Source: an uncultured Erysipelotrichaceae bacterium (GTDB lineage: Bacteria > Bacillota_I > Bacilli_A > RF39 > UBA660). From it: DNA of 64,000 bases. The notes beneath the pieces are model-generated. The model saw nothing but the letters and a program-made list of their open reading frames with translations. It was not told where the DNA came from and did not search any database. Positions 3,607 through 43,377 of this stretch are shown in pieces (positions within the stretch are counted from its first letter, which is position 1; every line of letters starts with the position of its first letter). The position numbers were made by a program, and so were the translations under genes. Location of the stretch: contig CACYRE010000001.1 in NCBI GenBank assembly GCA_902776735.1, forward strand, positions 48,395 to 112,394, in the 5' to 3' direction.

Positions 3607-3620
3607 TAGTAATCTCCTTT

Positions 3621-4004
3621 CTAAAAATCTTTATGAGTATATATAGTTCTATAAAACATTTCAATTACTTTTAATCTATCTCTTTCATTATAAAGAGGTT
3701 TAGATTCTTCTTCTATCATATCAATAGCAGCTTTTATTCTATCTTTTTGTTGTTTTTCTAAAACTGTATTATTAGATAAAAGTTTTATAGCTTTTTTACA
3801 TTGACTTATAAAATATTGAGTTTCTGTAATTAATCTTAATAAATTAGAATATTCATATACTATTCTATTATACTGATTAGATATATAGATAGTATCCATT
3901 TGTTGTTTATAATCTGCAAATTCTATTTCTGGAACACTATCTAAATATCCATCTATTTTCTTTATTAAAGTATTTAATGTATTATTTAAAGATGATAAAT
4001 CCAT
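3621..4004 (-). CDS. hypothetical protein
   Basis: ORF in co-directional array, RBS GGAGGTAT upstream of ATG. Confidence 0.5.
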   Translation of the reverse strand: MDLSSLNNTLNTLIKKIDGYLDSVPEIEFADYKQQMDTIYISNQYNRIVYEYSNLLRLITETQYFISQCKKAIKLLSNNTVLEKQQKDRIKAAIDMIEEESKPLYNERDRLKVIEMFYRTIYTHKDF

Positions 4005-4051: not shown

Positions 4052-5659
4052 TTAATCTTCATAGAATAAATCTGGTGAATTATGATTTTGTATCCATTCT
4101 TCTACTATATTTCTCATATTATCATAAGTTTCTTCATTAGGTATGTCTAATTTAACATCTCTAGTTAATTCTTCTCCATCATTACCTATTGCATATATAT
4201 CAAACTTTATTATATTGTTATCTTCAAAACTTATATTTCCTACTGTAAAATCACTTCCATCAAAAGCATCTTGAATAGCTTTAACTAGATTATTACCAGA
4301 ATCAGTATTAGTATCTTCTTTTAAGTCAGTATTTTCAGATTCACTGGTGTCTTCTAATGGTTGGTCTGGATTAAATTCTTCCCCATCTTTAATAACTTCA
4401 CATCTATCTAAATAATCTTTATCAGCTTCTTCTTTGCTTTCATAAATTTCTGCATTTTCTATTTCACCTTCAGAAAGATTATAATTTTCACCTACTATAT
4501 ATCTAGTTCCTTCAGATTTATCTTCTAGCATATAAATATTACCTTGTTCTTTTACTACTTGTAAATCTTTAACTTCTGTTTGAGCAGCTTCTACTACAAG
4601 TTTCTTTTTCGTTTTTTCTGACTCAGATAACTTATTATAATCATTTATAATATCTTTATCTTTCATCCAAGTATTTCTTATTAAATCTTCTTTATCTTTA
4701 TCTGATAATGAATTATAATAACTTGGGTCATCTATTGCTCCATTATCTAATAATCCTTTTACATAATTATAAAAATCGTCATCATTTACAGGTTTCTTTT
4801 CTATTGGTTTATTTGGTCCGCCTGCTTCTTCTAAAGATTTTTCTGATTCACTATAAAACTCATTTCCGCTAGCTAATCTTTTTCCTCTTTCTATTTGATA
4901 GTTACAAGTTTCTATCCAATCATTAACCATTTGTACTGATAATTTAGCTCCAAAAGAATTAGTATCTATAGCTTCTAAAGCAGCTTTTATTGTTTCCACA
5001 TCAGAAACAAAATCTTCTGGGTCTCCACCTAATTTTTCAGAATATTCTTCTTTTAAAGATTTAGCAGATTCTGATAGATTTCCTCCAGCTTTTACTTTTT
5101 CAAAAGCTTCTTTTCCAGATGCTTCATCGTAATAATAATATCCATAATCCCAAGAAATTTCATCATTTTCTACAGTATATCCAAAAGCTACTACATATTC
5201 ATCACCCATTTTTTGAAGTTTAACTAAAGCAACAGGTTGGCCTCTTCTTTCTGTTTTGTCTAGTATTTCAGCTTTTTCTCCTAGTTTAAATCCTTCTTTT
5301 AAAGATTTAGCAGATTCATCTAAAGTATTCCATTTTTTAAGTTGGTCCATCATAACTACTTGTTTACTAGGTACTTCAACAGTTACATATTTTCCATCTT
5401 CTATTTCTATAATAGGGGCTTCTGTAAATTCTCCTGGTGTATATGAACCATATTTATATGGTACTTTTACTACATCTCCTACTTTAAAATCTTGATTATT
5501 CTCTTCTTTTAAAGGTTTATCACATTCTTGTAATTCAGATTCTAATTTTTCTACTTTAATCTTAGTACCTTCCATAAAAACTCTTTTTTTAATTTTAAAA
5601 GTTTTAGTTTCACTTTCATTAAGTTCTTTTGCTAAATTAAAACTAAGTTTATTTAACAT
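4052..5659 (-). CDS. hypothetical protein with shared 30-aa N-terminal leader (family 2)
   Basis: N-terminus MLNKLSFNLAKELNESETKTFKIKKRVFME nearly identical to adjacent gene 5675..6430; ~95 bp DNA repeat at both 5' ends. Confidence 0.65.
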   Translation of the reverse strand: MLNKLSFNLAKELNESETKTFKIKKRVFMEGTKIKVEKLESELQECDKPLKEENNQDFKVGDVVKVPYKYGSYTPGEFTEAPIIEIEDGKYVTVEVPSKQVVMMDQLKKWNTLDESAKSLKEGFKLGEKAEILDKTERRGQPVALVKLQKMGDEYVVAFGYTVENDEISWDYGYYYYDEASGKEAFEKVKAGGNLSESAKSLKEEYSEKLGGDPEDFVSDVETIKAALEAIDTNSFGAKLSVQMVNDWIETCNYQIERGKRLASGNEFYSESEKSLEEAGGPNKPIEKKPVNDDDFYNYVKGLLDNGAIDDPSYYNSLSDKDKEDLIRNTWMKDKDIINDYNKLSESEKTKKKLVVEAAQTEVKDLQVVKEQGNIYMLEDKSEGTRYIVGENYNLSEGEIENAEIYESKEEADKDYLDRCEVIKDGEEFNPDQPLEDTSESENTDLKEDTNTDSGNNLVKAIQDAFDGSDFTVGNISFEDNNIIKFDIYAIGNDGEELTRDVKLDIPNEETYDNMRNIVEEWIQNHNSPDLFYED

Positions 5660-5674
5660 AATATAAACTCCTTT

Positions 5675-6430
5675 CTATAAAGTATTTTTAATCGGAATAA
5701 TTAAATCTAAATGGTCTTGTAAATCTTGTGTATCTATTCCTCCATATTGTAAATCATTTTGAAATTCTGTTTCAGCGTCAGATTCCCAATCGAATTCAGG
5801 GTCATTTTCTTCAGCCCATTTTTTAGATTCTTCATAATATCCTAAAGCTTCTATTATTTTCTTTTCATCATCTATTAAAGTAAATAAACCAACTTCAATA
5901 CTACCATCATGGTCTGCAGCATCTAATACAAGATTTCCATTTTCAACTGAGATTTCAACTATATCCCATCTACTAATATATTCTTCAAATTCTGATATAT
6001 TTGAAAAAGTAACACCACCATTGCCAGATGGTTTAAAATCAGAATAATTAGAATTATATCCACCCATTAAATATAATCTACCAAAATTCATTTGATTTTC
6101 AATCATTGGTTCTATATTTTCTTTAAAATCATCCCAAATAAGTTCTGAATCGTCATAAAAATCAGAATTTAGCCATTCATCATAACTAGGGATTTCATCC
6201 TCATCATATCCATCAAAATTAGCTTTAATATAATCATTATAAGCTTCTTCACTAGTATCTACTTCAGAAGACCAAATTGTCTGTCTATTTTCATTTTTTA
6301 TATGAAATTCATTTAGTCTTTCTTTTCTAACTCCTGTGCTTTCCATAAAAACTCTTTTTTTAATTTTAAAAGTTTTAGCTTCACTTTCATTAAGTTCTTT
6401 TGCTAAATTAAAACTTAATTTGTTTAACAT
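5675..6430 (-). CDS. hypothetical protein with shared 30-aa N-terminal leader (family 2)
   Basis: N-terminus MLNKLSFNLAKELNESEAKTFKIKKRVFME; paralogous leader to 4052..5659, unrelated C-terminal body. Confidence 0.65.
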   Translation of the reverse strand: MLNKLSFNLAKELNESEAKTFKIKKRVFMESTGVRKERLNEFHIKNENRQTIWSSEVDTSEEAYNDYIKANFDGYDEDEIPSYDEWLNSDFYDDSELIWDDFKENIEPMIENQMNFGRLYLMGGYNSNYSDFKPSGNGGVTFSNISEFEEYISRWDIVEISVENGNLVLDAADHDGSIEVGLFTLIDDEKKIIEALGYYEESKKWAEENDPEFDWESDAETEFQNDLQYGGIDTQDLQDHLDLIIPIKNTL

Positions 6431-6443: not shown

Positions 6444-6719
6444 CTATATTTTTTCTAATATCATTCCTACAGCTGTTTTTTCTTCACCTTGTATAGATAA
6501 AATATCAAAATAAGGTCTGATTATAATATCAAACCCTGAAGGTGTAGCTAAACCTCTTGCAGAAATTACAGCTTTTACAGCTTGATTTACTGCAGGTACA
6601 CCAATACATTTTAGTTCTAATTTATCTACGTTTTTTATATTAGCATAAATTGCTGACGCTAATTTTTTAATATCAGTATCTTTTCCAACTCTAAATTCTG
6701 GTATGTTCTTTGCTTCCAT
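6444..6719 (-). CDS. spoVS: SpoVS-like protein (stage V sporulation protein S homologue)
   Basis: 91 aa; strongly resembles SpoVS core (CIGVPAVNQAVKAVISARGLATPSGFDIIIRPYFDILSIQGEEKTAVGMILE vs SpoVS GAGALNQAVKAVAIARGFVAPSGVDLICIPAF..GEERTAIKLIVE, recalled from memory); RBS AGGAGGTAAAT-ATG. Confidence 0.75.
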   Translation of the reverse strand: MEAKNIPEFRVGKDTDIKKLASAIYANIKNVDKLELKCIGVPAVNQAVKAVISARGLATPSGFDIIIRPYFDILSIQGEEKTAVGMILEKI

Positions 6720-6806
6720 ATTTACCTCCTAATCTACTATTTTTTAGCTCCTAATATAATAAATAATTAGAATGTAAAAAGGTACCAGAATTAAATCTAG
6801 GACCTT

Positions 6807-7873: not shown

Positions 7874-10048
7874 CTACCTCTTTATATTATTTCTTTTACA
7901 ATAAACAATTATTGTACTTTTATCTCTATTTAATTTTTTAGCTATTTTTCCATAAGATATGTTTTTAATATTATTTTTTATAAATTCTTTTTCTTCTTCT
8001 GTTAAATAATTAATATTCTTTTTATATTCTATATAATTTAATCTACAATAGTTTCTTATTGTAGCTTCTGCTCTATTTAATTTTTCTATCATTTCTTTAA
8101 GTGTCATATTTTTAGCATTTTTCTTTATAAAATCTCTTTCTTCTTCTGATAAAAGTGAATAACCCCTTTTTCTTGTATGTTTATATTCTATATTATTTTT
8201 ATTATAATATTCTCTAATTGTAGCTTCAGCTCTATTTAATTTATCCATCATTTCTTTAATAGTCATATTTTTAGCATTTTCTTCTATAAAATCTTTTTCT
8301 TCTTCTGATAAATAATGAGAGATTTTTATATATTCTATATTATTTCTATCACAATAAGCATTTATTACAGACATACTTCTATTTAGTTTTTTTGCTAATT
8401 CTTTAGATGTCATAGTTATAGCATTTTTCTTTATAAAGTCTTTTTCTTCTTCTGTAAAAGGATTATAATCTTTTTTATGTTCTATATTATTTCTATAATA
8501 ATAACCACTTATTGTTGGTGTACATCTATTTAGCTTTTTTGCTATTTCTTTAATAGTCATATTTTTAGCATTTTCTTCTATAAATTTTTTTTCCTTTTCA
8601 GATAAAAAATAAAATTCTTTTTTATATTCTATATTATTTCTATCACAATAATCTCTAATTGTAGCTTCTGGTCTATTTAATTTTATTGTTAATTCTTTAA
8701 TAATCATATTTTTAGCATTTTCTTCTATAAATTTTTTTTCTTCCTCTGATAAAAGATAAATTTCTTTTTTATATTTTATATTATTTCTTTTATAATATTG
8801 TCTTATAGTATAAGGTTTTTTATTTAGTTTTTTTGCTATTTCTTTAGTTGTCATAGTCATAGCATTTTCTTCTATAAATTTTTTTTCTTCTTCTGATAAA
8901 TAAATAATTGTATGAGTGTTTTCTTTAATTAAATTTATTAAATTTTCTTGTTTTGTATAGATTTTTAATTTTTCTTTCTTCTTTCCTATTTTAATATCAG
9001 AAACTTTTATATTTCTTTTTTTAGCAAAATTTTCCCAAATAGATATATAACCACTATCTAAATTATATGCATTATTAACTAAATCAAATACTATAGCATC
9101 TTCTCTATGTTCTGAAATTATTCTACCTAATTGTTGTTGATATATAATATTACTTCTAGTTTTTCTTAAGAATACTGCTACATCTATATTAGATAAATGT
9201 ATACCTTCAATAAACATATTTACTGAATATAATATATTTATTCCTTTTTTAGAATTATAAAAATCATTTAATATTTGATTATTAAGTTTATTAGATTTTT
9301 TAGAATGTATATCAAAATTATTAACATCTCTATCTATCCATAATTTTATAAAATTTTTTGCTTGTTCTATATCATTAATTCTAGATACAAATACTATAAT
9401 ATGAAGAGGTTTACTATAATCTATAAATTCTTCAAATATATTTTTTACTTTAGTATTTATATCATAATTAGATAATTTCTTTTGCAAAGCTTTATTTTTA
9501 TAATATCTATAATCTATTTCATAAATAGAAGAAACATATTTTATTTGAGGTAATATTCCTCGTTCTATAGATTCAGCTAAATATAAAGGTTCTATTTCTT
9601 CATTATTAAATATTAATTCTATAGGATTCTTACCATCCATTCTTTCAGGAGTAGCACTAAATCCTATCATTTTACCTTTATAATCTTCTAAGTCTTTCTT
9701 TAATATATTACCCCATTTTTCTGTAACTGACCTATGCATTTCGTCTAAAAATATATAGTCATAATCTAATAAAGACTTATGATTAAAATTTTGTTTTAGT
9801 AAATTACTATATATTATAAAATCTGTATTATTATAATTTCCAAATTCTTTAATATATTCAACAATATTATCTCTAGGTTCTATAATAAGTTTCTTTCCTA
9901 GAAGCTCATCACATAATTCCATTATAATATGAGATTTACCAAAACCTACTGGTCTTACTACACCAAATTTATCACAAGTCTTTAATTTTTCTAATATTAA
10001 ATTTTTAGTCTTTATTCTTTCTATAGATAGTAAACTTTTATCAAACAT
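7874..10048 (-). CDS. SF2 helicase-like ATPase fused to eight tandem helix-turn-helix repeats
   Basis: Walker A VGFGKSH, DExH-like FLDEMHR, SATP motif, QQLGRIIS; C-terminal 8 x ~46-aa repeats LSEEEKxFIEENAKNMTIKEIAKKLNRxxxTIRxYxxRNNIEYKK (HTH-like); promoter TTTACA-N17-TATAAT upstream. Confidence 0.7.
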   Translation of the reverse strand: MFDKSLLSIERIKTKNLILEKLKTCDKFGVVRPVGFGKSHIIMELCDELLGKKLIIEPRDNIVEYIKEFGNYNNTDFIIYSNLLKQNFNHKSLLDYDYIFLDEMHRSVTEKWGNILKKDLEDYKGKMIGFSATPERMDGKNPIELIFNNEEIEPLYLAESIERGILPQIKYVSSIYEIDYRYYKNKALQKKLSNYDINTKVKNIFEEFIDYSKPLHIIVFVSRINDIEQAKNFIKLWIDRDVNNFDIHSKKSNKLNNQILNDFYNSKKGINILYSVNMFIEGIHLSNIDVAVFLRKTRSNIIYQQQLGRIISEHREDAIVFDLVNNAYNLDSGYISIWENFAKKRNIKVSDIKIGKKKEKLKIYTKQENLINLIKENTHTIIYLSEEEKKFIEENAMTMTTKEIAKKLNKKPYTIRQYYKRNNIKYKKEIYLLSEEEKKFIEENAKNMIIKELTIKLNRPEATIRDYCDRNNIEYKKEFYFLSEKEKKFIEENAKNMTIKEIAKKLNRCTPTISGYYYRNNIEHKKDYNPFTEEEKDFIKKNAITMTSKELAKKLNRSMSVINAYCDRNNIEYIKISHYLSEEEKDFIEENAKNMTIKEMMDKLNRAEATIREYYNKNNIEYKHTRKRGYSLLSEEERDFIKKNAKNMTLKEMIEKLNRAEATIRNYCRLNYIEYKKNINYLTEEEKEFIKNNIKNISYGKIAKKLNRDKSTIIVYCKRNNIKR
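7900..9000 (-). repeat. eight imperfect tandem ~138-bp repeats encoding the HTH repeat array
   Basis: Protein-level 46-aa repeats within CDS 7874..10048. Confidence 0.6.
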
Positions 10049-10083: not shown

Positions 10084-10112
10084 ATTATATCATAAGATTT
10101 TATAAATGTAAA
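10084..10112 (-). promoter_or_regulatory. sigma-A/sigma-70-type promoter TTTACA-N17-TATAAT (extended -35 TTATTTACATTT)
   Basis: Minus strand TTATTTACA|TTTATAAAATCTTATGA|TATAAT, ~25 nt upstream of SD for helicase-HTH gene. Confidence 0.7.
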
Positions 10113-11490: not shown

Positions 11491-11528
11491 AATTAAACCC
11501 TCCTTTATTTATAATTATGCAAAATAAA

Positions 11529-11549
11529 AAGGAGGGTTTAAACCTCCTT
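11529..11549 (-). terminator. intrinsic terminator hairpin (AAGGAGGGTTTAAACCTCCTT palindrome + T-run on minus strand)
   Basis: Perfect 8-bp stem, followed by TTTTTATTTT on minus strand after gene 11612..12331. Confidence 0.6.
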
Positions 11550-11611
11550 AGCACAAGTCCTATAAAATAGGATGCACCTCTATATCTAGTAGTGGAGAAT
11601 AGTCCACTTTA

Positions 11612-12331
11612 CTAGCTATTTGATTGATTTTCAAGCTTCTTTTTAATTTCTTCCATTGATAAACCATTTATAAGACCATCTCTAATTTCTTCCATTTGAT
11701 TACTATCAAATTCTGGTTTAGCATAAGTTAATACTTGTTCCATAGATAAATCATAAAAACCGTATCTAATTTGTCTCATTTGATATTTATCAAATTCTGG
11801 TTTAGCATAAACCTGTATTTCTTCCATAGACAAGTTACGGTCAAAACCATTTCTAATTTCTTCCATTTGTTCACTGCTAAATTCTGGCTTAGCATAAACT
11901 TGTACTTCTTCTATAGATAAACCATCATAAAAACCATCACTAATTTTATCCATTTGATTTTCATTAAATTCTGGTTTAGCATAAACTAATACTTGTTCCA
12001 TAGATAAACCATTTCTAAAATCTACTCTGATTATATGCATCTGGTTTTTATTAAATTCTGGTTTAGCAAATAATAATACTTGTTCCATAGATAAACCATT
12101 ATAAAATCCATTTCCAATTTCATACATTTGACCATTATCAAATTCAGGTTTAGCATAAACTTGTACTTCTTCCATAGATAAGCCATGTCTAAAGCCATTT
12201 TTAATTTCATTCATTTGCCATTTATCAAATTGTCCACTTTCTTCGCACTGTTTAATAAAGTTATCTTCTGTAGTCCCTTCATTTAAATTATTTTGAATAC
12301 TTTCTAATAATTTCATTGTATCATTTTTCAT
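11612..12331 (-). CDS. leader-bearing repeat protein (family 1 leader MKNDTMKLLESIQNNLNE; 7 x ~33-aa repeats)
   Basis: N-terminal 18 aa identical to 12336..12719 (57-bp identical DNA); body is 7 tandem repeats GFxxGLSMEEVQVYAKPEFxxxQMxxI. Confidence 0.65.
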   Translation of the reverse strand: MKNDTMKLLESIQNNLNEGTTEDNFIKQCEESGQFDKWQMNEIKNGFRHGLSMEEVQVYAKPEFDNGQMYEIGNGFYNGLSMEQVLLFAKPEFNKNQMHIIRVDFRNGLSMEQVLVYAKPEFNENQMDKISDGFYDGLSIEEVQVYAKPEFSSEQMEEIRNGFDRNLSMEEIQVYAKPEFDKYQMRQIRYGFYDLSMEQVLTYAKPEFDSNQMEEIRDGLINGLSMEEIKKKLENQSNS

Positions 12332-12335
12332 ATTT

Positions 12336-12719
12336 TTACCTTCTTAATATTTTTAATTGTTCATTAGCACATTGGTCTAACAAATCAATAACTTCTTCAA
12401 TAGATACACCTGTTTTTTCTTTTCTGTTGATTGCTTTATTGTCTTTTATAATATCTACATAAATATCATAATCATCACTGTGTTTATTATATCCAATAAA
12501 ACCTAGTCTTATAGAAGTACCACCAGATATATAACCTTTACTATCATATATATCAGCAGCAAATCCAATATTTCCTGTACCAGTATCATATTGATAAACA
12601 AATTTATATACTTTATTTATTGTAGAAGTTAACATAGATATAAATTGTTCTTTATTTATATCACTCTCATTTAAATTATTTTGAATACTTTCTAATAATT
12701 TCATTGTATCATTTTTCAT
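12336..12719 (-). CDS. leader-bearing protein (family 1 leader MKNDTMKLLESIQNNLNES)
   Basis: Identical leader to 11612..12331, unrelated body. Confidence 0.6.
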   Translation of the reverse strand: MKNDTMKLLESIQNNLNESDINKEQFISMLTSTINKVYKFVYQYDTGTGNIGFAADIYDSKGYISGGTSIRLGFIGYNKHSDDYDIYVDIIKDNKAINRKEKTGVSIEEVIDLLDQCANEQLKILRR

Positions 12720-12776
12720 AATAATATTCTCCTTTTTTAATATTTTCTAATATTATATATAAAATTAATACTAATT

Positions 12777-13583
12777 TTAATCTAATTCTTCAGACCTTAT
12801 AGTAAACTCACCATCAAATTCTTCATTATATTCGTCTGGATTTATTCTTTTATATTTACCTGTCATAGTATTCTCTATTTCAACCATAAAACCATTCATT
12901 AATTTGTCATGAGCAAATAAAGTAGCTTCAGTCCAGTCATTAGTTTTTAATTCATCTTCTGTATCATGTAATTTATAATCATAATAAGAGCATACGATAT
13001 ATTTTGTATCATTACTAATTTCATTTAAACTACTTTGAATACTTTCTAATAAATTTCTAGTTTTACTTCTAAATTCAATAGATTCATTTACATTAGATAA
13101 TCCTAATTTCTTTTCAACAATTTCTTTATGATTATCATGTATTTTACCTTCATTATATAAATTTTCTAGAGTTTGTTTTAATATATCAACATCTTTAGAA
13201 AATACTTGAATTATTTTTTTTGGACTTCCTTTTGTTTTTCTATATGGAAGACGAACACTTCCATAAGCCATATATTGATTATCTGGAATAGTTGTAATAG
13301 AATTTTGATTAACTTCCATTATTAAAGTATCAGGTAGTTCTAAATCATCTGTTAATTTTGGATTATCTCCATAAACATTCTCACTTTGATAAATTGCAAA
13401 ACCAACATGTAGAATATCATTTCCAGCAATTCCATTTATAAATTCACTTTGATTCTCTCCTAGATATAATCTAATAAAACAAGTATCTCCTCCTAAAGCT
13501 CCTAAAGATATGCTTATTCCACTATTAGGAAATCTTTGTTTATATGCATTTTCTATTTGAGATTTAAACTCACCATAAGTCAT
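12777..13583 (-). CDS. two-domain protein with internal family-1 leader-like segment (RNLLESIQSSLNEIS at ~aa 170)
   Basis: Internal copy of LLESIQxxLNE motif between two domains; RBS AGGAGGAAATAAAAAATG. Confidence 0.6.
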   Translation of the reverse strand: MTYGEFKSQIENAYKQRFPNSGISISLGALGGDTCFIRLYLGENQSEFINGIAGNDILHVGFAIYQSENVYGDNPKLTDDLELPDTLIMEVNQNSITTIPDNQYMAYGSVRLPYRKTKGSPKKIIQVFSKDVDILKQTLENLYNEGKIHDNHKEIVEKKLGLSNVNESIEFRSKTRNLLESIQSSLNEISNDTKYIVCSYYDYKLHDTEDELKTNDWTEATLFAHDKLMNGFMVEIENTMTGKYKRINPDEYNEEFDGEFTIRSEELD

Positions 13584-13597
13584 TTTTTATTTCCTCC

Positions 13598-15634
13598 TTA
13601 TAATACTTGAATAGCTCCAGTAGATGCAAAATAAAATCCACTAAAATCTAAGTCTCTACCTAAAGCTCCATAATCAAAATAATCAGATAAATCATTTCCA
13701 TCTGCAATATCTATTTCTAATTGTTCTTCTACTACAGAGTCTAACCATTCTTCTACTAGGTCATAAAATTCATCACTACCTTCATCTATATCTGGGTTAT
13801 CATCTCTTACAGATTCTTCAGCTGCTTCTCTCCAGCTTTCTCTATAAGCTTTTTCATCAATATAATTTTCTTTATTAGCTACTCCTTCAAAACCTCCAAT
13901 CATATCTACCCAGGCTTCACCTAATTCTTCTTCAGTTTCTACTCCTGGAAAGAATATATAATCCCCAGATTCTAATATATCCATACAAGTATCAAAATCA
14001 TCATTTTGGTCTTCCATTATAGCAGTAAAAGCAGCTCTTTCATCTTCTGATAATTCTTCAATCTTTTCAAGCTGTTCAATAACTACCCAAGGATTTGAGT
14101 ATTCATCTATAGTAAAAGGAATATCTCCTTCAGTATCATTTATAAATGGTTCTTCATCTTTATGTGCTTCTAAAAATTCTTTAGCTTGTTCTAATTTCAT
14201 CCAACCACCATTTATTTGTTCTACATCTGCTCCATTTTCATTATAATTTCCCCAAGTATTCATAAATAATTCAATATTTAATGGATTATATTCTTCTGTT
14301 AATAAACCTTTTTCTATACTATCTTTTCTTACATTTTCTAAACTAGATTCTTCTAATTGACTTAATTTATCCATTAGAAAATCTCTTTTAGACTCTAAAC
14401 CAGAAATATTTTTATTTGGGTCAGAATTTGCTATACTATCTTGTACTTTTTCTAATTCTTTCTTTATAGTTTCAGCATAATCTTTTCTTGTTTTATTTGA
14501 TACTGATTCAGACAACATATCATAAACTTCTTGTGTTTCATATCTTATTATATGTTTTCCATCTTTATCAGTTCCATTATACATAGGACCTAAATAACCT
14601 TTAAATTGTAATTGATTATCTAATTCTTCTCTTGGAACTACACCACCATTATTTCTATATTTTGAATTATCAGGAGATAATTTATCTTCTTTTATTGGTA
14701 ATTTTTCTGCTTCTTCTCTTGTATAAGTTCCAGCATAATCACCACCAACTAATTGATAGACATAATTATTATAATCAGCCTCTTCATTTAAAGCTGATTC
14801 ATCATATTCCTCAAAATCAAAGTTTTGATTTACTTCTTCTAAAAATTCATCTAAATAATTATCATTTACAGAATCTAAATCTGTATTTCTTAATGCAAAC
14901 ATTATTACTTGAACCATTGATTGCCAGGTTTTTGACCTATTAAAATCTTCTATATTATTAGGCATTGATGAAATAAAACCAGAACTAGAAGAATAATTTG
15001 ATTTTAAAAAGTTTTCAAATTCACTATTTGATAAAGCTTCTTTTCTTAAATTTTCATATTCATCTTGATTTACTTCTAAATTAAATTCTAGCTCGTCTCC
15101 TGAATAATTATATTGACTTGGATGATAAACTTTATTTGCTATAATTTTAGCACTTGGAAGAACTTCTTGTATTGTTTTTTCTATATATTTTGGAGCAATA
15201 TCTTCTATTATTTTATCTAATTCTTCTAATGAAGCACTATCTGGTAATCTGTCACTTAAAGAATACATATCAACATTTATTATTGGAAGTACCCCAGTAT
15301 TTAAATCTATATCTAAATTAGCTCCAGATTCATTTAAATTAGATTCATCTAATGATATACTTCCATAACCTTTATATTCTTCATATCCTTGGTCTTTTAA
15401 TTCTCTTGCTTTTTGTCTTAATGCTTTGCTTGTTAATTTTTTATGTTTATTTAAAGGCATTGTTTGACTATTAACAAATTGAAATTGTTTAGTTTCATTA
15501 TTTATAATTAAACCTAAAATACTAAAGTTAAATTGATTTTTAGACACATAGGTTTCGTCACCAGATAACATTTTTTTGTCATCTTCTTTTAAATTTGCTT
15601 GAATATTTTCAAATAACTTTTTTGTTCCTGACAT
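13598..15634 (-). CDS. large leader-bearing protein (MSGTKKLFENIQANLKED)
   Basis: 678 aa; N-terminus fits family-1 leader consensus; RBS AGGAGGATTAAAATG. Confidence 0.65.
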   Translation of the reverse strand: MSGTKKLFENIQANLKEDDKKMLSGDETYVSKNQFNFSILGLIINNETKQFQFVNSQTMPLNKHKKLTSKALRQKARELKDQGYEEYKGYGSISLDESNLNESGANLDIDLNTGVLPIINVDMYSLSDRLPDSASLEELDKIIEDIAPKYIEKTIQEVLPSAKIIANKVYHPSQYNYSGDELEFNLEVNQDEYENLRKEALSNSEFENFLKSNYSSSSGFISSMPNNIEDFNRSKTWQSMVQVIMFALRNTDLDSVNDNYLDEFLEEVNQNFDFEEYDESALNEEADYNNYVYQLVGGDYAGTYTREEAEKLPIKEDKLSPDNSKYRNNGGVVPREELDNQLQFKGYLGPMYNGTDKDGKHIIRYETQEVYDMLSESVSNKTRKDYAETIKKELEKVQDSIANSDPNKNISGLESKRDFLMDKLSQLEESSLENVRKDSIEKGLLTEEYNPLNIELFMNTWGNYNENGADVEQINGGWMKLEQAKEFLEAHKDEEPFINDTEGDIPFTIDEYSNPWVVIEQLEKIEELSEDERAAFTAIMEDQNDDFDTCMDILESGDYIFFPGVETEEELGEAWVDMIGGFEGVANKENYIDEKAYRESWREAAEESVRDDNPDIDEGSDEFYDLVEEWLDSVVEEQLEIDIADGNDLSDYFDYGALGRDLDFSGFYFASTGAIQVL

Positions 15635-15645
15635 TTTAATCCTCC

Positions 15646-16128
15646 TTATTTAAATATAAATTCTTGACTATTATTATGTTTACCAGATAATTTTGATGAA
15701 AAAGCTTTTGTATTTTCTTTTGAAAAAGACATATTTTTTTCATTATTATTAAATTCTCCAGCTAAAGTTCCATCTGCTTTAATAAAACCAAAATAATCCT
15801 TATCCTTCCAAATTATACTTTCTTGATTTAATTTTTGTGCTATTTTTAAAGCTTCTTCTTTTGGAATATTATAAATTATATAACTATCTTCATTACCTGT
15901 TAATCCATCATCATAAGTATACTTACCTTTTATTAAATTATACCCAATATTATCATATTTTGAACTTAACTTTCTTATAAAGTCATCTAATTCTTCTCTT
16001 CTATCTCTCTTTGTATTTTGGTCTTGACTTCCAATTATTGCAAAAGACTTATCATCTTTGGTATGTTGATAAAGTCTAGATAAAGATATTTCATTTAATC
16101 TATTAATTATATTAATAGTATCTTTCAT
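15646..16128 (-). CDS. hypothetical protein (N-term NIINRLNEIS LxE motif)
   Basis: ORF; leader-like LNE|IS near N-terminus. Confidence 0.5.
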   Translation of the reverse strand: MKDTINIINRLNEISLSRLYQHTKDDKSFAIIGSQDQNTKRDRREELDDFIRKLSSKYDNIGYNLIKGKYTYDDGLTGNEDSYIIYNIPKEEALKIAQKLNQESIIWKDKDYFGFIKADGTLAGEFNNNEKNMSFSKENTKAFSSKLSGKHNNSQEFIFK

Positions 16129-16130
16129 TT

Positions 16131-16718
16131 TTAATTTCCTTCCTTCTCAATAAATTTATCATCTAATTCTTGAAGTAATCCTTCGACCCATTCTTGTAAT
16201 TCTGGATATAATTTTATAGTATCTTTATTTGAGTTATAATATTGATTTGCTGTATCTCCAAAGACATATCCCATAGCTTGCCAGTCACAAATCATTTCTA
16301 TATAAGCTTTCTTTACTTCTACTAAATCTGTCATAGGAGTTAATTCTCCACTTTCATCTGTCCAATATTGCCAATGATGAGGATTATTTCTAAAATGATG
16401 ATACCAAGCTGCTTGAAAATTAGCTTCATTTGCTGTTTTTTCTTCATCATTTACTGGATTATAATTAGCTCTATAAGCATCAAACTCCTCTTCTCCCCAT
16501 TTAGATAAGTCATGTTTTTCTATTTGTTTAGTTAACTCATCATAATTTTCTTTAATAAAATCATCATCTAAAGTAGATACTTGTTCTAACCAAGCTTTTT
16601 GCACATTTTGTATATGAGAATCTACATATTGAGAATAATCATTAATGCATTTATCTAAGTCTTCAGATTCAGTTATATTTTTCTGTATACTTTCTAATAA
16701 ATTTTTAGTCATTGACAT
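16131..16718 (-). CDS. leader-bearing protein (MSMTKNLLESIQKNITESE); start refined from ORF-track 16757 to 16718
   Basis: Strong SD GGGGAGGATTAAT 8 nt upstream of ATG at 16718; ORF-track extension MWYNICVLRGGLI overlies a perfect TTTACA-N17-TGnTATAAT promoter, so is not coding. Confidence 0.65.
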   Translation of the reverse strand: MSMTKNLLESIQKNITESEDLDKCINDYSQYVDSHIQNVQKAWLEQVSTLDDDFIKENYDELTKQIEKHDLSKWGEEEFDAYRANYNPVNDEEKTANEANFQAAWYHHFRNNPHHWQYWTDESGELTPMTDLVEVKKAYIEMICDWQAMGYVFGDTANQYYNSNKDTIKLYPELQEWVEGLLQELDDKFIEKEGN

Positions 16719-16745
16719 TATTAATCCTCCCCTTAACACACATAT

Positions 16746-16774
16746 ATTATACCACATTTTTAATGAAATGTAAA
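16746..16774 (-). promoter_or_regulatory. promoter TTTACA-N17-TGnTATAAT
   Basis: Minus strand TATTTACA|TTTCATTAAAAATGTGG|TATAAT with extended -10 TG; drives leader-protein gene 16131..16718. Confidence 0.7.
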
Positions 16775-16781
16775 TATAATT

Positions 16782-17882
16782 TTAATCTATACTTAAATCT
16801 TTGCTTCTTAATTTATAATATTCATCTTTAAGTTTAGATATATAATCTTCACTTCTTAATTCTTTAAATACTAAATTACCTATACTAGCTTCACCTTCTT
16901 CAGCTAAACCTAGTTTTCTCATCATATAAATTTCATTAATTAAATCCATTATTTTATCTGTATCTTTAGATACTAAAGCATTATCACATTTCTCTTCATA
17001 TTCTGATAATTCATTAGATATATCTGGAATATCATAGTTTATAGGAATAGGAACTTTAACCCATTCTTGTTTTAAAATACTATATCTACCATTAGTAGCA
17101 TTACCTGACATTATATCTTCAATATAAAGTTCTACTGGTATTCCTTTAATATTTAAATCATAATTATCATTAAATGAACTCTTTTTAGAATTATATAATT
17201 CTTGTAATACTGTAGGCTCTATATAGCTTAAAGCAAAGTTAACAATAATATGCAAATCTATATCTGATTTATTATTATAATTATAGCTAGCATTACTTCC
17301 AACTATTTCTATATCTACTATATTAAGAGGAATTTCTATATAATTAAGAAACTCATCTGAAATTTCTTTTAAAGATTTTAGTACTTCTTCTTTCATAGTC
17401 ATATTAGTATTCCATAGTTTAGGATTTAAATCTTCATGAACTTCTATAGCTTCTTCTAGTTTATCAAAATGTTGACTCTCTGTTAATATTTCTCCCTCTT
17501 CTATATTACTAGCTCTATGAACATCTATAAGATTTAATAGATATTTAGTTTGAGTATTAAAAGCTTCTATTTTTTCTTCATTAAAATTACTTATAAAATC
17601 TTCAGACTGTTCTTTATATCTTAATAAAGTTTTCTTAAATGTAGATTCACTAACATCTGAACTAGAATCTGGTTCATAAGTATATCCTAAATTATTAAAG
17701 TTAGTAATAATATTATTTAAATTATCAATTATATCACCCAGAATATCATCTGAGACACTTTTATCTTCATTATAATAATATTTATCAACTAACTCTTGAA
17801 TATTATATAAATATGGTATTGTATTATCTTTTAAATCTTGAAGTACTATAGTTTCTTTTAAATATTTAAATAAATCACTCAT
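16782..17882 (-). CDS. nucleotidyltransferase-fold protein (GS-x10-DxD minimal NTase motif)
   Basis: IVGSNASYNYNNKSDIDLHIIVNF matches G[GS]x9-13[DE]h[DE]h of Pol-beta/CD-NTase superfamily; N-term YLKETIV (LxE). Confidence 0.55.
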   Translation of the reverse strand: MSDLFKYLKETIVLQDLKDNTIPYLYNIQELVDKYYYNEDKSVSDDILGDIIDNLNNIITNFNNLGYTYEPDSSSDVSESTFKKTLLRYKEQSEDFISNFNEEKIEAFNTQTKYLLNLIDVHRASNIEEGEILTESQHFDKLEEAIEVHEDLNPKLWNTNMTMKEEVLKSLKEISDEFLNYIEIPLNIVDIEIVGSNASYNYNNKSDIDLHIIVNFALSYIEPTVLQELYNSKKSSFNDNYDLNIKGIPVELYIEDIMSGNATNGRYSILKQEWVKVPIPINYDIPDISNELSEYEEKCDNALVSKDTDKIMDLINEIYMMRKLGLAEEGEASIGNLVFKELRSEDYISKLKDEYYKLRSKDLSID

Positions 17883-17921
17883 TTAATTCCTCCAATAAAT
17901 ATCTCTATATTTATATATAAA

Positions 17922-20858: not shown

Positions 20859-21338
20859 CTATATTATTTCTGCATTGTCTAGAAATTTGTCTAATACTAA
20901 TTTAATAAAATCTTTTCCTAAATTATTAGAGTTAGATGATTTAGTTATATCTACTTTTAATTCACCATTTTTATATCGTCTAAAATATATAGTTCCGTTG
21001 TCTATATTATCTTCCCAATATAATACAAACCATCTATCACCATCACCTACAGAACCACAAGCTGTTAAATCTACTTTGGAAATATTTCTAGTATAAGTAA
21101 TTTCATTATTTTTAATATCACTTTCTACTGGTTTTTGGTTCTCTCTAGTAATACCTTTAATTGCCCAAAATTGAGCTTCTTCTAATTTAGTCATAGCCAA
21201 ACTAGTTTCTCTTCCTGGTTTGCAAAGTTCTTCTACTGAATCATAAATATCAGACATACTATCTCTAAAACAATCTATTCTTGATTGCTGGTCTTCGGTT
21301 GTTTGAGTATATCTTGCTTTTTCATGTAAATCTCTCAT
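20859..21338 (-). CDS. hypothetical protein
   Basis: ORF, RBS AAGGAGGTAATAT upstream. Confidence 0.5.
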   Translation of the reverse strand: MRDLHEKARYTQTTEDQQSRIDCFRDSMSDIYDSVEELCKPGRETSLAMTKLEEAQFWAIKGITRENQKPVESDIKNNEITYTRNISKVDLTACGSVGDGDRWFVLYWEDNIDNGTIYFRRYKNGELKVDITKSSNSNNLGKDFIKLVLDKFLDNAEII

Positions 21339-24840: not shown

Positions 24841-26013
24841 TTAAGATTTATCTATATTAGATTTTTTCTTATTATCTAAATTTTGCATTAATTCTAAAGC
24901 TGCTTGCCATCCTTGTACTGTATCTATTAAAATATTTTGTGCAGGTCTATCATTAATTGAAAGATATGTATTATATTCTGGATTTGGGTCATATACTTTC
25001 CAAGTTCCATTTATATCATGTTCTGTATTAATAGACCAGCTATAATCAGTTTCATCATAAGGATGAGAACTAGAAATATAATATTTATTATTAGAATCTT
25101 TAAAATAATAAGGTCTAGGTAATTCTGGTAAACCATTTTCATCGAAAGACATTTGACCATTTTCATCTTCATATCCTTCTTTTAATTTATCTTTATGAAT
25201 AGCTAGATATTTATCTCCTTCTTTAACTAAGATATAATTACCTCTTTGATATTGACCTTTAGAATTTTTTAAGAAACCTTTATTTAAAATATTTAATCCT
25301 TCATCCAATCCAGAAAGTAATATATCATAATGTTTCTTTTTAGAAGTAGTAACATCTTTATTCATATCTTGGTCTACTTTAGGAGCTATATCAGAAGTTT
25401 GTGTTCCATCTTCTTTTATTTCTATTCTTCTAGTATCTTGAGCTTTATTAACTAATTTAGTATATTGTTCATTAGATATATTATCTTCTAATGAAGCTTT
25501 TTCTAAAAAATCGTCTAGCTCTTTATCTGTTGCGTCTTTAGAAATTAAGTCATCTAACTCTTTATCTAAAGCTATATAATAAGCATTTTCTTCATCAAAA
25601 GATTCCTTTATTTTTTTGTTTCCATTACCTCTAAGAATATAACCTGCTCCTTCAAATATTTTATAACCATTAATTTCAGTTAAAGGAATACCAGCTTCTT
25701 CTACTATTTCTATATTTTCATTTAATAAATCATTACATTCTGAATAATAGTCTTCTACAGTAATTCCTGACTCTTCAAATATATCTTTAAATTTTCCAGT
25801 TTCTAAAATATAATTTTCATTTAAATACAATAAAGAAGTTGCATAAGCCCTACATTCTAATAAATCATCTAAAATATTATTATCTGAATTATCTGTATTC
25901 TTATAAGCAATAACTTTATTATCTAAACCATTAATCTTAATTAGATTATATACACCCTCTTTAAGATTAACTATATCATATTTTAGATTTTTAAAATTAC
26001 TTAATATATTCAT
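24841..26013 (-). CDS. hypothetical protein
   Basis: 390-aa ORF downstream of a strong terminator hairpin. Confidence 0.5.
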   Translation of the reverse strand: MNILSNFKNLKYDIVNLKEGVYNLIKINGLDNKVIAYKNTDNSDNNILDDLLECRAYATSLLYLNENYILETGKFKDIFEESGITVEDYYSECNDLLNENIEIVEEAGIPLTEINGYKIFEGAGYILRGNGNKKIKESFDEENAYYIALDKELDDLISKDATDKELDDFLEKASLEDNISNEQYTKLVNKAQDTRRIEIKEDGTQTSDIAPKVDQDMNKDVTTSKKKHYDILLSGLDEGLNILNKGFLKNSKGQYQRGNYILVKEGDKYLAIHKDKLKEGYEDENGQMSFDENGLPELPRPYYFKDSNNKYYISSSHPYDETDYSWSINTEHDINGTWKVYDPNPEYNTYLSINDRPAQNILIDTVQGWQAALELMQNLDNKKKSNIDKS

Positions 26014-26073
26014 TAAATCTTACTCCTTTCTGTAATTATTCTATAACTAATTATTCTTCCTAATTAAATATAT

Positions 26074-26103
26074 AAAAGTGTAACATCATTTAGTTACACT
26101 TTT
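26074..26103 (-). terminator. intrinsic terminator (11-bp stem AAAAGTGTAAC/GTTACACTTTT, 8-nt loop, flanking T/A runs; potentially bidirectional)
   Basis: Between 26133..26321 stop and 24841..26013 start. Confidence 0.65.
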
Positions 26104-40887: not shown

Positions 40888-40916
40888 ATTATATCATAAT
40901 TATTTAAAAATGTAAA
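40888..40916 (-). promoter_or_regulatory. promoter TTTACA-N17-TATAAT
   Basis: Minus strand TATTTACA|TTTTTAAATAATTATGA|TATAAT upstream of 40473..40808. Confidence 0.7.
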
Positions 40917-42944: not shown

Positions 42945-42947
42945 AAT

Positions 42948-43027
42948 TGGAGAAGGTAGGATTCGAACCTATAATATTTAAATGACTTATACAAATCATT
43001 ATTCTCTACCAATTGAGATACTTCTCC
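42948..43027 (-). tRNA. tRNA-like gene with canonical acceptor/D/T arms but non-canonical anticodon arm (isotype unassigned)
   Basis: Minus-strand RNA GGAGAAG-TA-TCTC-AATTGGTA-GAGA-A-[TAATGATTTGTATAAGTCATTTAAATATTA]-TAGG-TTCGAAT-CCTA-CCTTCTCC-A: 7-bp acceptor, D-arm, GGTTCGAATCC T-arm; no 5-bp/7-nt anticodon arm can be drawn (best: 7-bp stem AATGATT/AGTCATT with 6-nt loop, or 6 bp with 8-nt loop). No encoded CCA. Confidence 0.55.
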
Positions 43028-43377
43028 ATAAATTTGGTGAGAGGTTCTAGTTTACGTCCAAATTTATAAGGTAATCAACCTCTTTCAGAGTATAAATACT
43101 CCCTCTCTATTAAATGACGTACATTGCACTATACAATAATATAAATCTATTAGGTTATTATATAATATGATGAGTATTATTTTTAATTAACATCATTATA
43201 TTATTAATACAGCTACTGTAACTCTATAATGTAGACCTCTTCATTCTACACCGTCGCTTTACACTATATAAAGCTAAATACCTATAGGCGTCTATTATTT
43301 CAAATAGACATCCACATCTATCATTGTAGATGTTTCAAGTATCATAAAATGTAATCCTCTGGACGATTACTTTTCCA

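Follow-up and report, generated by a model that had tools for sequence, protein, structure and literature searches.

What does a short peptide do when it is found at the start of a series of otherwise unrelated proteins? In phage T4 the prohead protease gp21 cleaves after L/I-x-E (PMC9026906), and capsid-targeting sequences of 10–19 aa are N-terminal propeptides on otherwise unrelated internal proteins (PMC9026906, PMC12373910). Here we investigate a set of leaders encoded by a phage of 125 kb that is uncultured and has head genes of the T4 type. The window, the whole stretch of DNA that was analysed, is 64,000 nucleotides long. Are its leaders propeptides of the T4 kind, as a sequence-only reading of this DNA had proposed? 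Or, are they secretion signals, nucleic-acid elements, helices with a role outside the capsid, or parts of the assembly machinery?

A common leader on unrelated proteins

At least ten proteins with unrelated bodies, encoded in the window and its flanks, open with an amphipathic leader of 13–30 aa that ends in L-(N/K/T)-E, and one further protein holds a complete copy internally. The common leader described by the sequence-only reading is therefore real, and the set is larger than it stated. All leader genes of the region that it flagged are on the minus strand. The features of this cluster are given below in the direction of transcription, with an arrow after the Glu at each candidate cleavage site.

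17904..17919, minus strand: late-type promoter-like motif TATATATAAATATAGA, upstream of the cluster
16782..17882, minus strand: nucleotidyltransferase-fold protein, first cluster gene; 135-aa N-terminal module, EILTE135↓S, enzyme body
16746..16774, minus strand: sigma-70-like promoter with extended -10 (TTTACA-N14-TGGTATAAT), directly 5' of the DUF5662 leader gene
16668..16718, minus strand: leader of the DUF5662 protein, MSMTKNLLESIQKNITE↓S
16090..16128, minus strand: leader of 15646-16128, MKDTINIINRLNE↓I; profile E 0.0012
15584..15634, minus strand: leader of the 678-aa protein 13598-15634, MSGTKKLFENIQANLKE↓D; profile match
13020..13091, minus strand: internal junction and full leader copy in 12777-13583, ...VNE↓SIEFRSKTRNLLESIQSSLNE↓IS, residues 165-188
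12746..12761, minus strand: second late-type promoter-like motif, upstream of 12336 and 11612
12666..12719, minus strand: leader of 12336-12719 (127 aa); first 53 nt the same as those of the 11612-12331 leader
12278..12331, minus strand: leader of 11612-12331, MKNDTMKLLESIQNNLNE; profile E 1e-4
11529..11549, minus strand: terminator-like hairpin and T run at the end of the cluster

The same peptide, MKNDTMKLLESIQNNLNE, leads both 11612-12331 (↓G) and 12336-12719 (↓S). Leaders had been reported on genes 11612, 12336, 13598, 16131 and 15646 and are present on all five, although the start of 16131 has to be moved. The only good ribosome-binding site of that gene lies before the ATG at 16718, which makes it 16131-16718 rather than 16131-16757, and its product is a DUF5662 protein (Pfam PF18907, E 2.5e-29). 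The leader subtype of 15646-16128 also occurs on small head-module proteins of relatives, for example L008:5798 (MKDSINILNKLNE↓D). The product of 11612-12331 is a 239-aa protein that does contain the repeats described, in 6.7 rather than seven copies of a 29-aa unit (87 nt). An internal copy had also been seen in 12777-13583, where the leader profile finds it at residues 178-189 (E 0.007). The N-terminal domain of this protein matches phrog_21515, and the gene looks like two fused cassettes. The nucleotidyltransferase was wrongly credited with a leader, as it opens with MSDLFKYLKE and has only the internal ILTE↓S. Its body is 42% identical (E 4e-38) to L018:9170-9874, a relative's homologue that does carry a leader (MSNTKQLFESILSHLNE↓) and is placed between the prohead protease and the capsid gene.

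A 12-column leader profile was run on 312 ORFs from all six frames. The best 19 matches are all N-terminal save the one internal copy, and the scores below them fall to noise. With the leaders stripped, 11 bodies have no mutual BLASTP similarity at E<1e-3, and two of them fall in separate Pfam families, ArdA and DUF5662. The 11 leader proteins contain 21 copies of the motif L[NKDST]E[SAGD], where their composition predicts 3.6 (z=10), and the remaining 79 ORFs contain 7, with 7.7 expected. This test is partly circular because the proteins were picked for having the leader, and it concerns a short motif, L-x-E. The P3 Leu and P1 Glu of the leader are nearly invariant, P3 being Leu, Ile, Met or Phe, and two of 17 compared leaders, both from a sister strain, end in LNK instead of LNE. 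As the earlier reading had claimed, the leader ends in L-x-E, the motif cleaved by T4 gp21. Homology between relatives ends exactly after this Glu.

Further leaders and candidates are located elsewhere in the window.

24841..26074, minus strand: 390-aa protein with leader-like start MNILSNFKNLKYDIVNLKE↓G and eight h-x-E-[SAG] sites
6341..6430, minus strand: family-2 leader of the 251-aa protein 5675-6430; 30 aa, sites ELNE15↓S and VFME30↓S
4052..5659, minus strand: family-2 polyprotein of 535 aa; leader and five double-site junctions
2008-3606, minus strand: candidate, 532-aa acidic protein starting MYKKLKLVESENKKLKE↓G
start at 2018, running off the window start, minus strand: candidate, 811-aa protein with its N-terminal part in the window, MKTNINIFNALNE↓S

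The family-2 leader, MLNKLSFNLAKELNESE(T/A)KTFKIKKRVFME↓, is shared by 4052-5659 and 5675-6430. The gene that begins at 2018 and the family-2 genes had been said to share a core of the LNE-S type, and leaders are seen on all of them; the next gene downstream of the 811-aa gene opens with MKDLNTFNFINSLNE↓S. The 390-aa protein, which has its own late-type motif at 26059-26074 and is missed by the leader profile, is tentatively placed in the leader class.

Is the conserved unit the peptide or the DNA?

An N-terminal position and the many copies of N-E-S might suggest a secretion signal or an N-glycosylation sequon. However, with a hydrophobic moment (muH) of 0.5-0.67 the leaders are amphipathic as well as polar, and inspection for Sec/Tat signal features found neither a hydrophobic core nor a signal-peptidase site. 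Many of them end in LKE↓D, LNE↓G, LNE↓D or LNE↓I, with no Ser or Thr to complete a sequon. We consider both possibilities scarcely credible.

The leaders of 12336 and 11612 are identical in their DNA, as had been claimed, over 53 nt from the ATG to the Glu18 codon rather than over 57 bp, and the ribosome-binding regions upstream of them differ. Could the conserved stretch be a nucleic-acid element, one that for example enhances translation, stabilises the mRNA or serves purely for recombination, and encodes a functionless peptide? The identity begins at the ATG, leader DNA is the sole similarity between many cassettes, and codon usage within the leaders is narrow. Yet conserved residues are written with varied codons (Leu TTA/CTT/CTA, Ser AGT/AGC, Phe TTT/TTC, Glu GAA/GAG), substitutions are conservative (L/F, L/I, I/Y/F/M), and the family-2 leader of 5675-6430 differs from that of its paralogue by three synonymous changes and one non-synonymous change. 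Leader subtypes with no DNA similarity retain the h-x-x-h...L-N-E pattern, and the motif is also found deep within ORFs, at module boundaries. A role confined to the nucleic acid is thus very improbable.

Head genes on a linked contig

Contig k141_243233 (L020) is 98.9% identical to the window where it overlaps the window end, and three proteins of the window, of 678, 535 and 427 aa, are present on it as exact copies. The sequence-only reading had named a prohead protease and a T4-like capsid protein as genes to look for, and both are on this contig, which encodes a T4 gp20-like portal, a gp21-like prohead protease and a gp23-like capsid protein (Pfam Portal_T4, Peptidase_S77 and Gp23; accessions, in numerical order, PF03420, PF07068 and PF07230). 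The Peptidase_S77 protease aligns to the T4 gp21 structure 5JBL and has GESNHP and GVSSRG where that enzyme has its catalytic His and Ser, and a search with the capsid protein recovers T4 gp23 structures (E 2e-14). The nearest cultured capsid proteins, from phages of Firmicutes, are 36% identical; the window phage is from an uncultured low-GC clade. A Cpn60-like chaperonin gene of the phage lies near the leader genes.

Conserved sites of the L-x-E type are present in the capsid protein (ALKE31↓S and ILTE68↓A), and conserved candidate sites in the scaffold-like protein (PALRE23↓S and SIKE↓A). The C-terminus of the protease reads VMVE↓SELME↓GINTLTE↓S. Ungapped extrapolation of T4 Glu65↓Ala66 leads to capsid residues 52↓53, between the two conserved sites, and gives only an approximate position for the maturation site. 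The protease substrates expected in this genome thus carry matching conserved sites, in line with the predicted processing of the leaders by the gp21-like protease.

The same motif between modules

In three or four proteins built of several modules, the modules are set apart by an L-x-E-S...L-x-E signature. AlphaFold models of two of these, the 678-aa and 535-aa proteins, show 4-6 folded modules per protein, and the signature falls in disordered linkers between them. The features of the 678-aa protein are as follows.

14336..15352, minus strand: four internal junctions, separating four modules and the ArdA domain
15329-15352, minus strand: junction LDE97↓SNLNE102↓
14783-14803, minus strand: junction DESALNE284↓
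14507-14515, minus strand: junction LSE376↓
14336-14356, minus strand: junction LEE429↓SSLE
13601..14302, minus strand: C-terminal ArdA anti-restriction domain (DNA mimic), from Pfam and fold

The model of this protein has a helix at residues 2-13, within the leader, and pLDDT<50 at 18-24, 97-103, 278-285 and 376-379, coinciding with the sites; near residues 430-450, in means over blocks of 10 residues, it stays above 50, with a dip to 52-59. In the relative P0122 the same module is preceded by ...LDESALNE↓. The 535-aa protein has the junctions LDE115↓SAKSLKE122↓, LSE197↓SAKSLKE204↓, YSE271↓SEKSLEE278↓, LSE346↓...VVE357↓ and TSE440↓...LKE448↓, and all five are matched by low-confidence linkers of its model (60-127, 199-210, 271-288, 348-359 and 433-451). 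Only five columns are at least 90% conserved among its homologues (n=65), and four of these, L13, E15, L202 and E204, are the P3 Leu and P1 Glu of two sites. In a set of 119 homologues the leader is found in 113, against 1 of 119 internal control windows, and 114 double-site motifs are counted where 3.2 would be expected. For homologues of the 678-aa protein the count is 41, with 2.2 expected.

ArdA and the acidic cargo

Analysis of the body domains, as the sequence-only reading had suggested, identified the ArdA anti-restriction domain of the 678-aa protein. It matches PF07275 (E 6.5e-7, 30.5 bits against a cut-off of 27) and, by Foldseek, structure 2w82 (E 2.6e-5, probability 1.0), with a target-normalised TM-score (TMt) of 0.57-0.71, and its net charge is -56. 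An anti-defence role, once suggested as a possibility for the cargo as a whole, is supported for ArdA alone. The cargo is strongly acidic, with net charges of -87, -106 and -54 in three proteins and a pI of 4-5. The internal proteins of T4 are basic, and heavily acidic protein beside packed DNA is not obviously favourable, which is a counterpoint to the reading as capsid cargo.

Relatives and cassette turnover

In relatives, the leader is found on small proteins encoded between the portal and the protease and on two proteins encoded between the protease and the capsid gene, one of them the nucleotidyltransferase homologue. The phage has a leader gene inside its own head module as well: L020:14169-15338, which adjoins a gp13-like neck gene, opens with MNKSTVDILNKLNE↓SSLNE↓. 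Modules shift between leader-adjacent and internal positions among relatives and are rearranged in P0121-P0128. Sister strain L026 has a capsid protein identical to that of the window phage and flanks that are 98.3% identical, and yet its ten leader genes in a row carry different cargo, with DNA similarity often confined to the ~46-nt leader. Leader loci are thus hypervariable between close relatives. Every cassette starts and ends with the same short coding sequence, so that recombination can swap cassettes, and such swapping would account for the hypervariable arrays.

Might the leaders and junctions be true prohead-protease sites on accessory scaffold or core proteins, which are cut and then expelled as the DNA enters? 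The cargo is indeed scaffold-like in its great acidity and its low-complexity Glu/Asp runs, leader genes are situated among scaffold genes, and the T4 core proteins gp22 and gp67 are fragmented and mostly exit the head (PMC9026906). On the other hand, no part in assembly is known for ArdA, DUF5662 or the nucleotidyltransferase fold, and the bodies are mostly predicted to be folded globular modules. Turnover of the arrays between strains with identical capsid proteins fits the cargo of an arms race, not conserved parts. A role as assembly components is unlikely on this evidence.

Promoter motifs and expression

The motif TATATATW5TAGR has seven exact matches against 0.25 expected. All are intergenic and on the coding strand, 6-109 nt (mostly 6-56) ahead of the next annotated gene start. 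It precedes the leader clusters and the terminase, portal-operon, neck, baseplate, tail-fibre and lysis genes, and none of the seven exact matches is ahead of a replication gene. Sigma-70-like sites such as the one at 16746-16774 number only three in the window, and all three are intergenic. This one is strong, and its place inside the cluster, upstream of genes 16131-12777, suggests early transcription in addition: those genes may also, or mainly, be expressed early.

Such a promoter would suit an N-terminal helix with a role outside the capsid, in chaperone docking, oligomerisation or degradation tagging, that was spread by recombination on proteins acting in the producing cell. Plasmid ArdA and T7 Ocr normally act through very early expression (PMC5512222), and a Cpn60-like chaperonin is encoded by the phage nearby. 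But a helix of this kind leaves unexplained the invariance of P3 Leu and P1 Glu, the same motif around the internal linkers, the leader genes in head modules and the structural-gene promoter motif at the clusters. We regard it as quite unlikely.

A proposed model of packaging and delivery

The leaders are probably capsid-targeting propeptides of the T4 kind, and the multi-module proteins effector polyproteins cut by the prohead protease. This agrees with the sequence-only reading, whose predictions, where they could be checked computationally, all came out as foreseen. The tag most likely marks proteins that are to be loaded into the capsid and delivered to the next host. In this model the leader genes would be transcribed together with the virion genes, and the amphipathic N-terminal helix would dock each protein on the scaffolding core during prohead assembly. 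The gp21-like Peptidase_S77 would then remove the leader by cleaving after the Glu of L-x-E, and would free the modules as separate proteins by cleaving on either side of each short linker (h-x-E↓S-x-x-L-x-E↓). Retained in the head with the DNA, the cargo would reach the next host before phage gene expression, and injected ArdA is predicted to block type I restriction immediately. Core binding, cleavage, head retention and injection are steps that we infer, as is any function of the cargo other than ArdA.

Comparison with known systems

The nearest parallel is with Ip1, Ip2, Ip3 and Alt of T4 and the T-even phages, in which a short N-terminal propeptide ending in L/I-x-E is likewise all that otherwise unrelated proteins have in common (PMC9026906, PMC12373910, PMC3012670). 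Variable hot-spot loci are also common to both, with anti-restriction cargo in T4 (PMC9026906, PMC12373910, PMC3012670), as are a gp21-type protease, a gp23-type capsid protein and a gp20-type portal. Unlike in T4, there are at least ten tagged genes per genome, up to ten of them consecutive, and several of the tagged products are polyproteins whose modules are joined by double-site linkers. The leader is unrelated in sequence and longer, at 13-18 aa (30 aa in family 2) where that of IPIII has 10 aa. The cargo also differs in being acidic instead of basic, and its packaging is here a computational prediction.

The phages phiKZ, 201phi2-1 and SPN3US are jumbo phages with T=27 capsids. Many of their head proteins are cleaved after Glu by a distant gp21 homologue, gp175 or gp245, from propeptides with several redundant sites, and cargo is ejected into the host (PMC9026906, PMC7411985, PMC10052503). 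Their motif is S/A/G-x-E rather than L-x-E, and the leaders described here, with Leu, Ile, Met or Phe at P3, do not fit it. To our knowledge, no common leader has been described for head proteins of the phiKZ type.

In polyvalent proteins (Iyer et al. 2017), several conflict-related domains, ArdA among them, are shuffled within one polypeptide, which is predicted to accompany DNA (PMC5512222). The proteins described here also combine several shuffled domains per polypeptide, including ArdA, as in the rearranged P0121-P0128. PF18824, a possible polyvalent-protein domain, is present in some distant homologues. The leader proteins differ in that none has an embedded metallopeptidase (MPTase), MuF or portal fusion by Pfam. 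In the window phage the prohead protease is predicted to do the processing in trans, by cutting a conserved linker, and a cleavable leader to do the targeting.

The Dar system of P1 (DarA, Hdf, DarB, Ulx, DdrA and DdrB) consists of anti-restriction proteins that travel inside the phage head and are injected (PMC9024508, PMC12810830). Their incorporation depends on a Dar/Hdf hierarchy instead of a common cleavable leader, and they have no sequence relationship to the window proteins. With the ArdA of Tn916 and conjugative plasmids, the window's domain shares its identity, its fold and its strong negative charge. Those ArdA proteins stand alone and are expressed early, once the DNA enters. The ArdA described here, by contrast, forms the C-terminal module of a 678-aa protein that bears a leader, and is encoded downstream of a late-type motif.

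Leaders shared by unrelated proteins

Several proteins of the window share a short N-terminal leader ending in L-x-E, and one gene contains a complete copy internally.

Leaders in and around the window (a slash marks the predicted cut after Glu)
11612-12331 and 12336-12719, minus strand: both proteins start with MKNDTMKLLESIQNNLNE
12777-13583, minus strand: complete internal leader copy, VNE/SIEFRSKTRNLLESIQSSLNE/
13598-15634, minus strand: 678-aa protein, N-terminal MSGTKKLFENIQANLKE
15646-16128, minus strand: N-terminal MKDTINIINRLNE
16131-16718, minus strand: DUF5662 gene, true start 16718, N-terminal MSMTKNLLESIQKNITE
4052-5659 (535-aa protein) and 5675-6430, minus strand: common 30-aa leader MLNKLSFNLAKELNESE.KTFKIKKRVFME/
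ORF running off the window start, minus strand: 811-aa protein, leader MKTNINIFNALNE/S
Next gene downstream of the 811-aa protein gene: leader MKDLNTFNFINSLNE/S

Among 312 six-frame ORFs, a small leader profile matched these N-termini and the internal copy and nothing else, and the protein bodies without their leaders have no mutual similarity. The LNE-type leader on unrelated proteins described in the sequence-only reading is thus borne out. In leader proteins, L[NKDST]E[SAGD] occurs at about six times the frequency expected from composition, and elsewhere at the expected frequency. Secretion signal peptide and glycosylation sequon readings were ruled out on the leader sequence itself.

The leader DNA of genes 11612-12331 and 12336-12719 is identical, as had been claimed, but over 53 nt (ATG to the Glu18 codon) rather than 57, and the upstream ribosome-binding regions are unlike. 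Likewise, the DUF5662 gene does carry a leader, but starts at 16718 and not at 16757. The nucleotidyltransferase (16782-17882) had also been said to carry the shared leader, which is absent from that protein in this genome. Its own start, MSDLFKYLKE (17853-17882, minus strand), has hydrophobic residues at 4, 7 and 8 and Glu at 10, the spacing of the T4 IPIII targeting sequence, MKTYQEFIAE. In IPIII, residues 4 and 7 are reported to be important for targeting and 8 and 10 for processing (PMC9026906). The MSDLFKYLKE start may represent another leader type, of T4 length, or the resemblance may be coincidental.

The genome and its head genes

The window is about 25% G+C with all genes on the minus strand. 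Genes for tail fibres and the baseplate occupy 47-64 kb, followed by a lysis region, genes for replication (DNA polymerase I, helicases and ligase) and then the leader region. Contigs with exact copies of window proteins are 122-125 kb, and hundreds of metagenomic contigs of 118-134 kb represent this uncultured phage clade. GenBank phages gave no useful BLAST hits to the region or to the 678-aa protein. In IMG/VR nothing matched a degenerate DNA pattern for the leader, and a DNA ligase query found no related loci; bacterial genome contigs searched with the capsid protein yielded no match. A tRNA gene (42947-43028, minus strand; Rfam 44.7 bits) sits in a 973-nt gap without an ORF. ARAGORN gives it a four-base anticodon, 'gtat', which could reflect an eight-base anticodon loop or a mis-call.

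Does the same genome encode a prohead protease and a T4-like capsid protein, as the sequence-only reading had proposed to search for? Walking upstream from the tail genes through relatives, and then through capsid-protein cluster member P0217, led to contig k141_243233 (L020). The overlap of L020 with a linking locus, L003, is 100% identical, and L003 is 98.9% identical to window positions 60816-64000. Contigs with capsid proteins P0035 and P0015 were also considered as the window's genome and are relatives instead; tape-measure lengths differ and DNA overlap is absent. Both genes sought are present in L020: the prohead protease is a Peptidase_S77 encoded at L020:8661-9350, and the major capsid protein is gp23-like. 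L020 also codes for a portal resembling T4 gp20. Aligned to the T4 gp21 structure, the protease has GESNHP and GVSSRG at the catalytic His and Ser positions, and the capsid protein matches T4 gp23 structures.

T4 gp21 cleaves after L/I-x-E, and the sole common part of the T4 internal proteins is a 10-19 aa N-terminal capsid-targeting propeptide ending in L/I-x-E (PMC9026906, PMC12373910). Conserved matching sites are present in the expected substrates: ALKE31/S and ILTE68/A in the capsid protein, PALRE23/S in the scaffold-like protein encoded at L020:7774-8646 and VMVE/SELME/GINTLTE/S at the protease C-terminus. The capsid maturation site extrapolated from T4 falls between the two capsid sites, an alignment that cannot fix its exact position.

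The head region of L020 has some unexpected members as well (1-2042 and 11505-12851): one gene is Band_7/flotillin-like, another is for a FolD-like methylene-THF dehydrogenase/cyclohydrolase, and a homing endonuclease has been inserted between the capsid gene and those of the neck. The gene call for the large terminase is split into two ORFs that overlap (2110-2787 and 2780-3916); a frameshift, an intron or an error in the assembly may be the cause. A 455-aa Cpn60/GroEL-family chaperonin (PF00118, precomputed) lies about 4-5 kb past the window start, at L019:7202-8569.

Leader genes are also found inside head modules. In L020 a 389-aa protein adjoining the gp13-like neck gene begins MNKSTVDILNKLNE/SSLNE/. 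In L008, a relative, leaders occur on small proteins whose genes lie around the portal gene and ahead of the protease gene, among them MKVTGIILNNLNE/D, MKDSINILNKLNE/D and MKTNTMKLLESIQNN..., with MNLSRTIINKLNE/S in addition just upstream of the portal. The neck-adjacent leader protein of L008 is homologous, at its C-terminus, to a module of the 535-aa protein. In another relative, L018, the gene directly preceding the capsid gene encodes a nucleotidyltransferase homologous to that of the window and tagged with the leader, MSNTKQLFESILSHLNE/EERKLNPKLWN.

In the cultured Bacillus cereus phage vB_BceM-HSE3, gp066 (L029:19265-20194), encoded after the neck gene, begins MKERLILERILNKRKSGESNINE/SVDQ, and the capsid protein contains FEHMTE/STQ. 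This phage may therefore have a weaker form of the arrangement in a growable, testable system. The paper on an SP-15 relative contains no virion proteomics.

Leader-like sites at module junctions

Homologues of the 678-aa protein have the same leader followed by differing bodies, and [LM]-x-E-S-A-L-N-E links their modules. In one homologue, P0122, the module that comes after the leader of the window's protein (DKKMLSGDETYVS...) is internal and stands after ...LDESALNE/. Module boundaries were read from motif listings because gapped BLASTP blurred them.

The leader lies within the first 40 residues in 113 of 119 homologues of the 535-aa protein, compared with 1/119 for internal control windows and 0/120 for capsid homologues. 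The double-site motif h-x-E-S-x(1-2)-L-x-E (h, hydrophobic) occurs 114 times in these 119 homologues (3.2 expected) and 41 times among those of the 678-aa protein (2.2 expected). In a 65-sequence alignment of the 535-aa family, with a mean column identity of 11%, only five columns are at least 90% conserved: L13 and E15 at the leader end, L202 and E204 at a junction, and a glycine.

The AlphaFold model of the 678-aa protein (mean pLDDT 84) has the leader as a helix and falls below 50 at residues 18-24, 97-103, 278-285 and 376-379, segments that match LKE17/, LDE97/SNLNE102/, SALNE284/ and LSE376/. In the 535-aa model all five double sites are in five low-confidence linkers between folded modules.

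Predicted cargo and its turnover

Both Pfam and the fold identify the 678-aa protein's C-terminus as ArdA. The proposal that the leader proteins are anti-defence effectors is supported for ArdA; beyond it, the proposal is a weaker sub-claim. The remaining cargo consists of the DUF5662 protein, a protein with a nucleotidyltransferase fold, a repeat protein and modules that matched nothing. The cargo proteins are acidic. Pfam found nothing on most cargo bodies, Foldseek found no significant fold for the 535-aa model (best E 0.17), and a literature search on DUF5662 returned nothing. Resemblances of the 535-aa model to small phage inhibitors were weak and are not claimed.

The sister strain L026 has an identical capsid protein and flanks 98.3% identical up to the DUF5662 gene. 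Beyond this, ten leader genes follow one another, most of their cargo being different, and DNA similarity to the window is often limited to the leader.

Cargo of L026
440-aa ArdA protein, architecture differing from that in the window
160-aa protein with DGRHR (spotted by eye; no Pfam match)
Several small unannotated proteins

Adjoining the DNA ligase gene is a 159-aa protein without a leader (20859-21338, minus strand) with an Acb2/Tad1 hairpin domain (PF24729, E 3e-12, 47 bits, cut-off 27), a candidate cyclic-nucleotide sponge against CBASS or Thoeris.

Expression signals

The window contains seven exact copies of the 16-nt late-type promoter-like motif TATATATW5TAGR, where 0.25 would be expected, and each is coding-strand and intergenic. 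Three (17904, 12746 and 26059) precede units with leader or leader-like genes, one of which also has tail-fibre-like genes; tail-fibre and lysis genes follow the remaining four. L020 copies precede the terminase, the portal and neck operons, a baseplate gene and a fibre gene. No match in the window or L020 precedes replication genes. A looser pattern, TTTATATATW, was at chance level overall (14 matches, 12.7 expected), whereas the refined motif exceeded chance.

A sigma-70-type extended -10 signal, TTTACA-N14-TGnTATAAT or ATTTACATTT-N11-TGnTATAAT, has three window copies and one in L020, all coding-strand and intergenic. The genes that follow these copies are a helicase-like one, the leader gene for DUF5662, one of the early region and one for a homing endonuclease.

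Promoter-like sigma-70-type signals
10084-10112, minus strand
16746-16774, minus strand
40888-40916, minus strand
L020:11454-11482

Since the DUF5662 leader gene has one such signal right in front of it, early reading of part of the cluster may occur as well. A helicase-like protein (724 aa; 7874-10048, minus strand) has about eight tandem helix-turn-helix-like units of about 45 aa in its C-terminal half (LSEEEKKFIEENAKNMTIKE...KLNR...TIR.YC.RNNIEYKK). Immediately upstream of the family-2 leader genes 4052-5659 and 5675-6430 is a 91-aa SpoVS-family protein (6444-6719, minus strand; PF04232 is assigned in the sister-strain copy), preceded by a one-mismatch copy of the 16-nt late-type motif at 6750-6765.

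A probable targeting and processing system

The T4 capsid-targeting sequence is the textbook route for loading arbitrary proteins into a phage head, and is documented mainly in T-even coliphages, with few cargo proteins each. The simplest account of the present observations, and probably the correct one, is that proteins are targeted and processed in the T4 style, here applied also to polyproteins and to a cargo set that is large and changes fast. Head retention, injection and an anti-defence role beyond ArdA are weaker parts of this account.

More tentatively, the prohead protease might double as a polyprotein processor of host-takeover cargo. Unrelated effector modules would be joined by an 'address plus scissile linker' grammar, with an h-x-x-h...L-N-E/ leader at the N-terminus and h-x-E/S-x-x-L-x-E/ linkers inside. 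The polyprotein would be loaded as a single polypeptide and then cut within the head into separate injected proteins, and the recurring leader and linker coding sequence would serve as a recombination handle for cassette exchange between phages. If this polyprotein reading is true, the tag is a search key listing injected effectors across a large uncultured clade. Confirmation of the T4-style account would make the leader a simple sequence tag for injected anti-defence proteins without other annotation, and possibly a protein-delivery tag for phages of Gram-positive-like hosts, and would give 'polyvalent' proteins a concrete processing route.

The T4 principle is already known, as is the idea of polyvalent proteins travelling with DNA (PMC5512222). 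The leader family, the grammar of double-site linkers and the presence of ArdA among tagged cargo appear to be new, and so do the scale and turnover of the arrays in an uncultured clade; no published description of the leader system was found in the part of the literature searched. Compared with the T-even phages, a distant uncultured clade appears to have the same logic with a much larger and rapidly changing cargo set. Further additions to the T4 picture are a known anti-restriction domain, ArdA, among the cargo, and multi-effector polyproteins whose linkers resemble protease sites.
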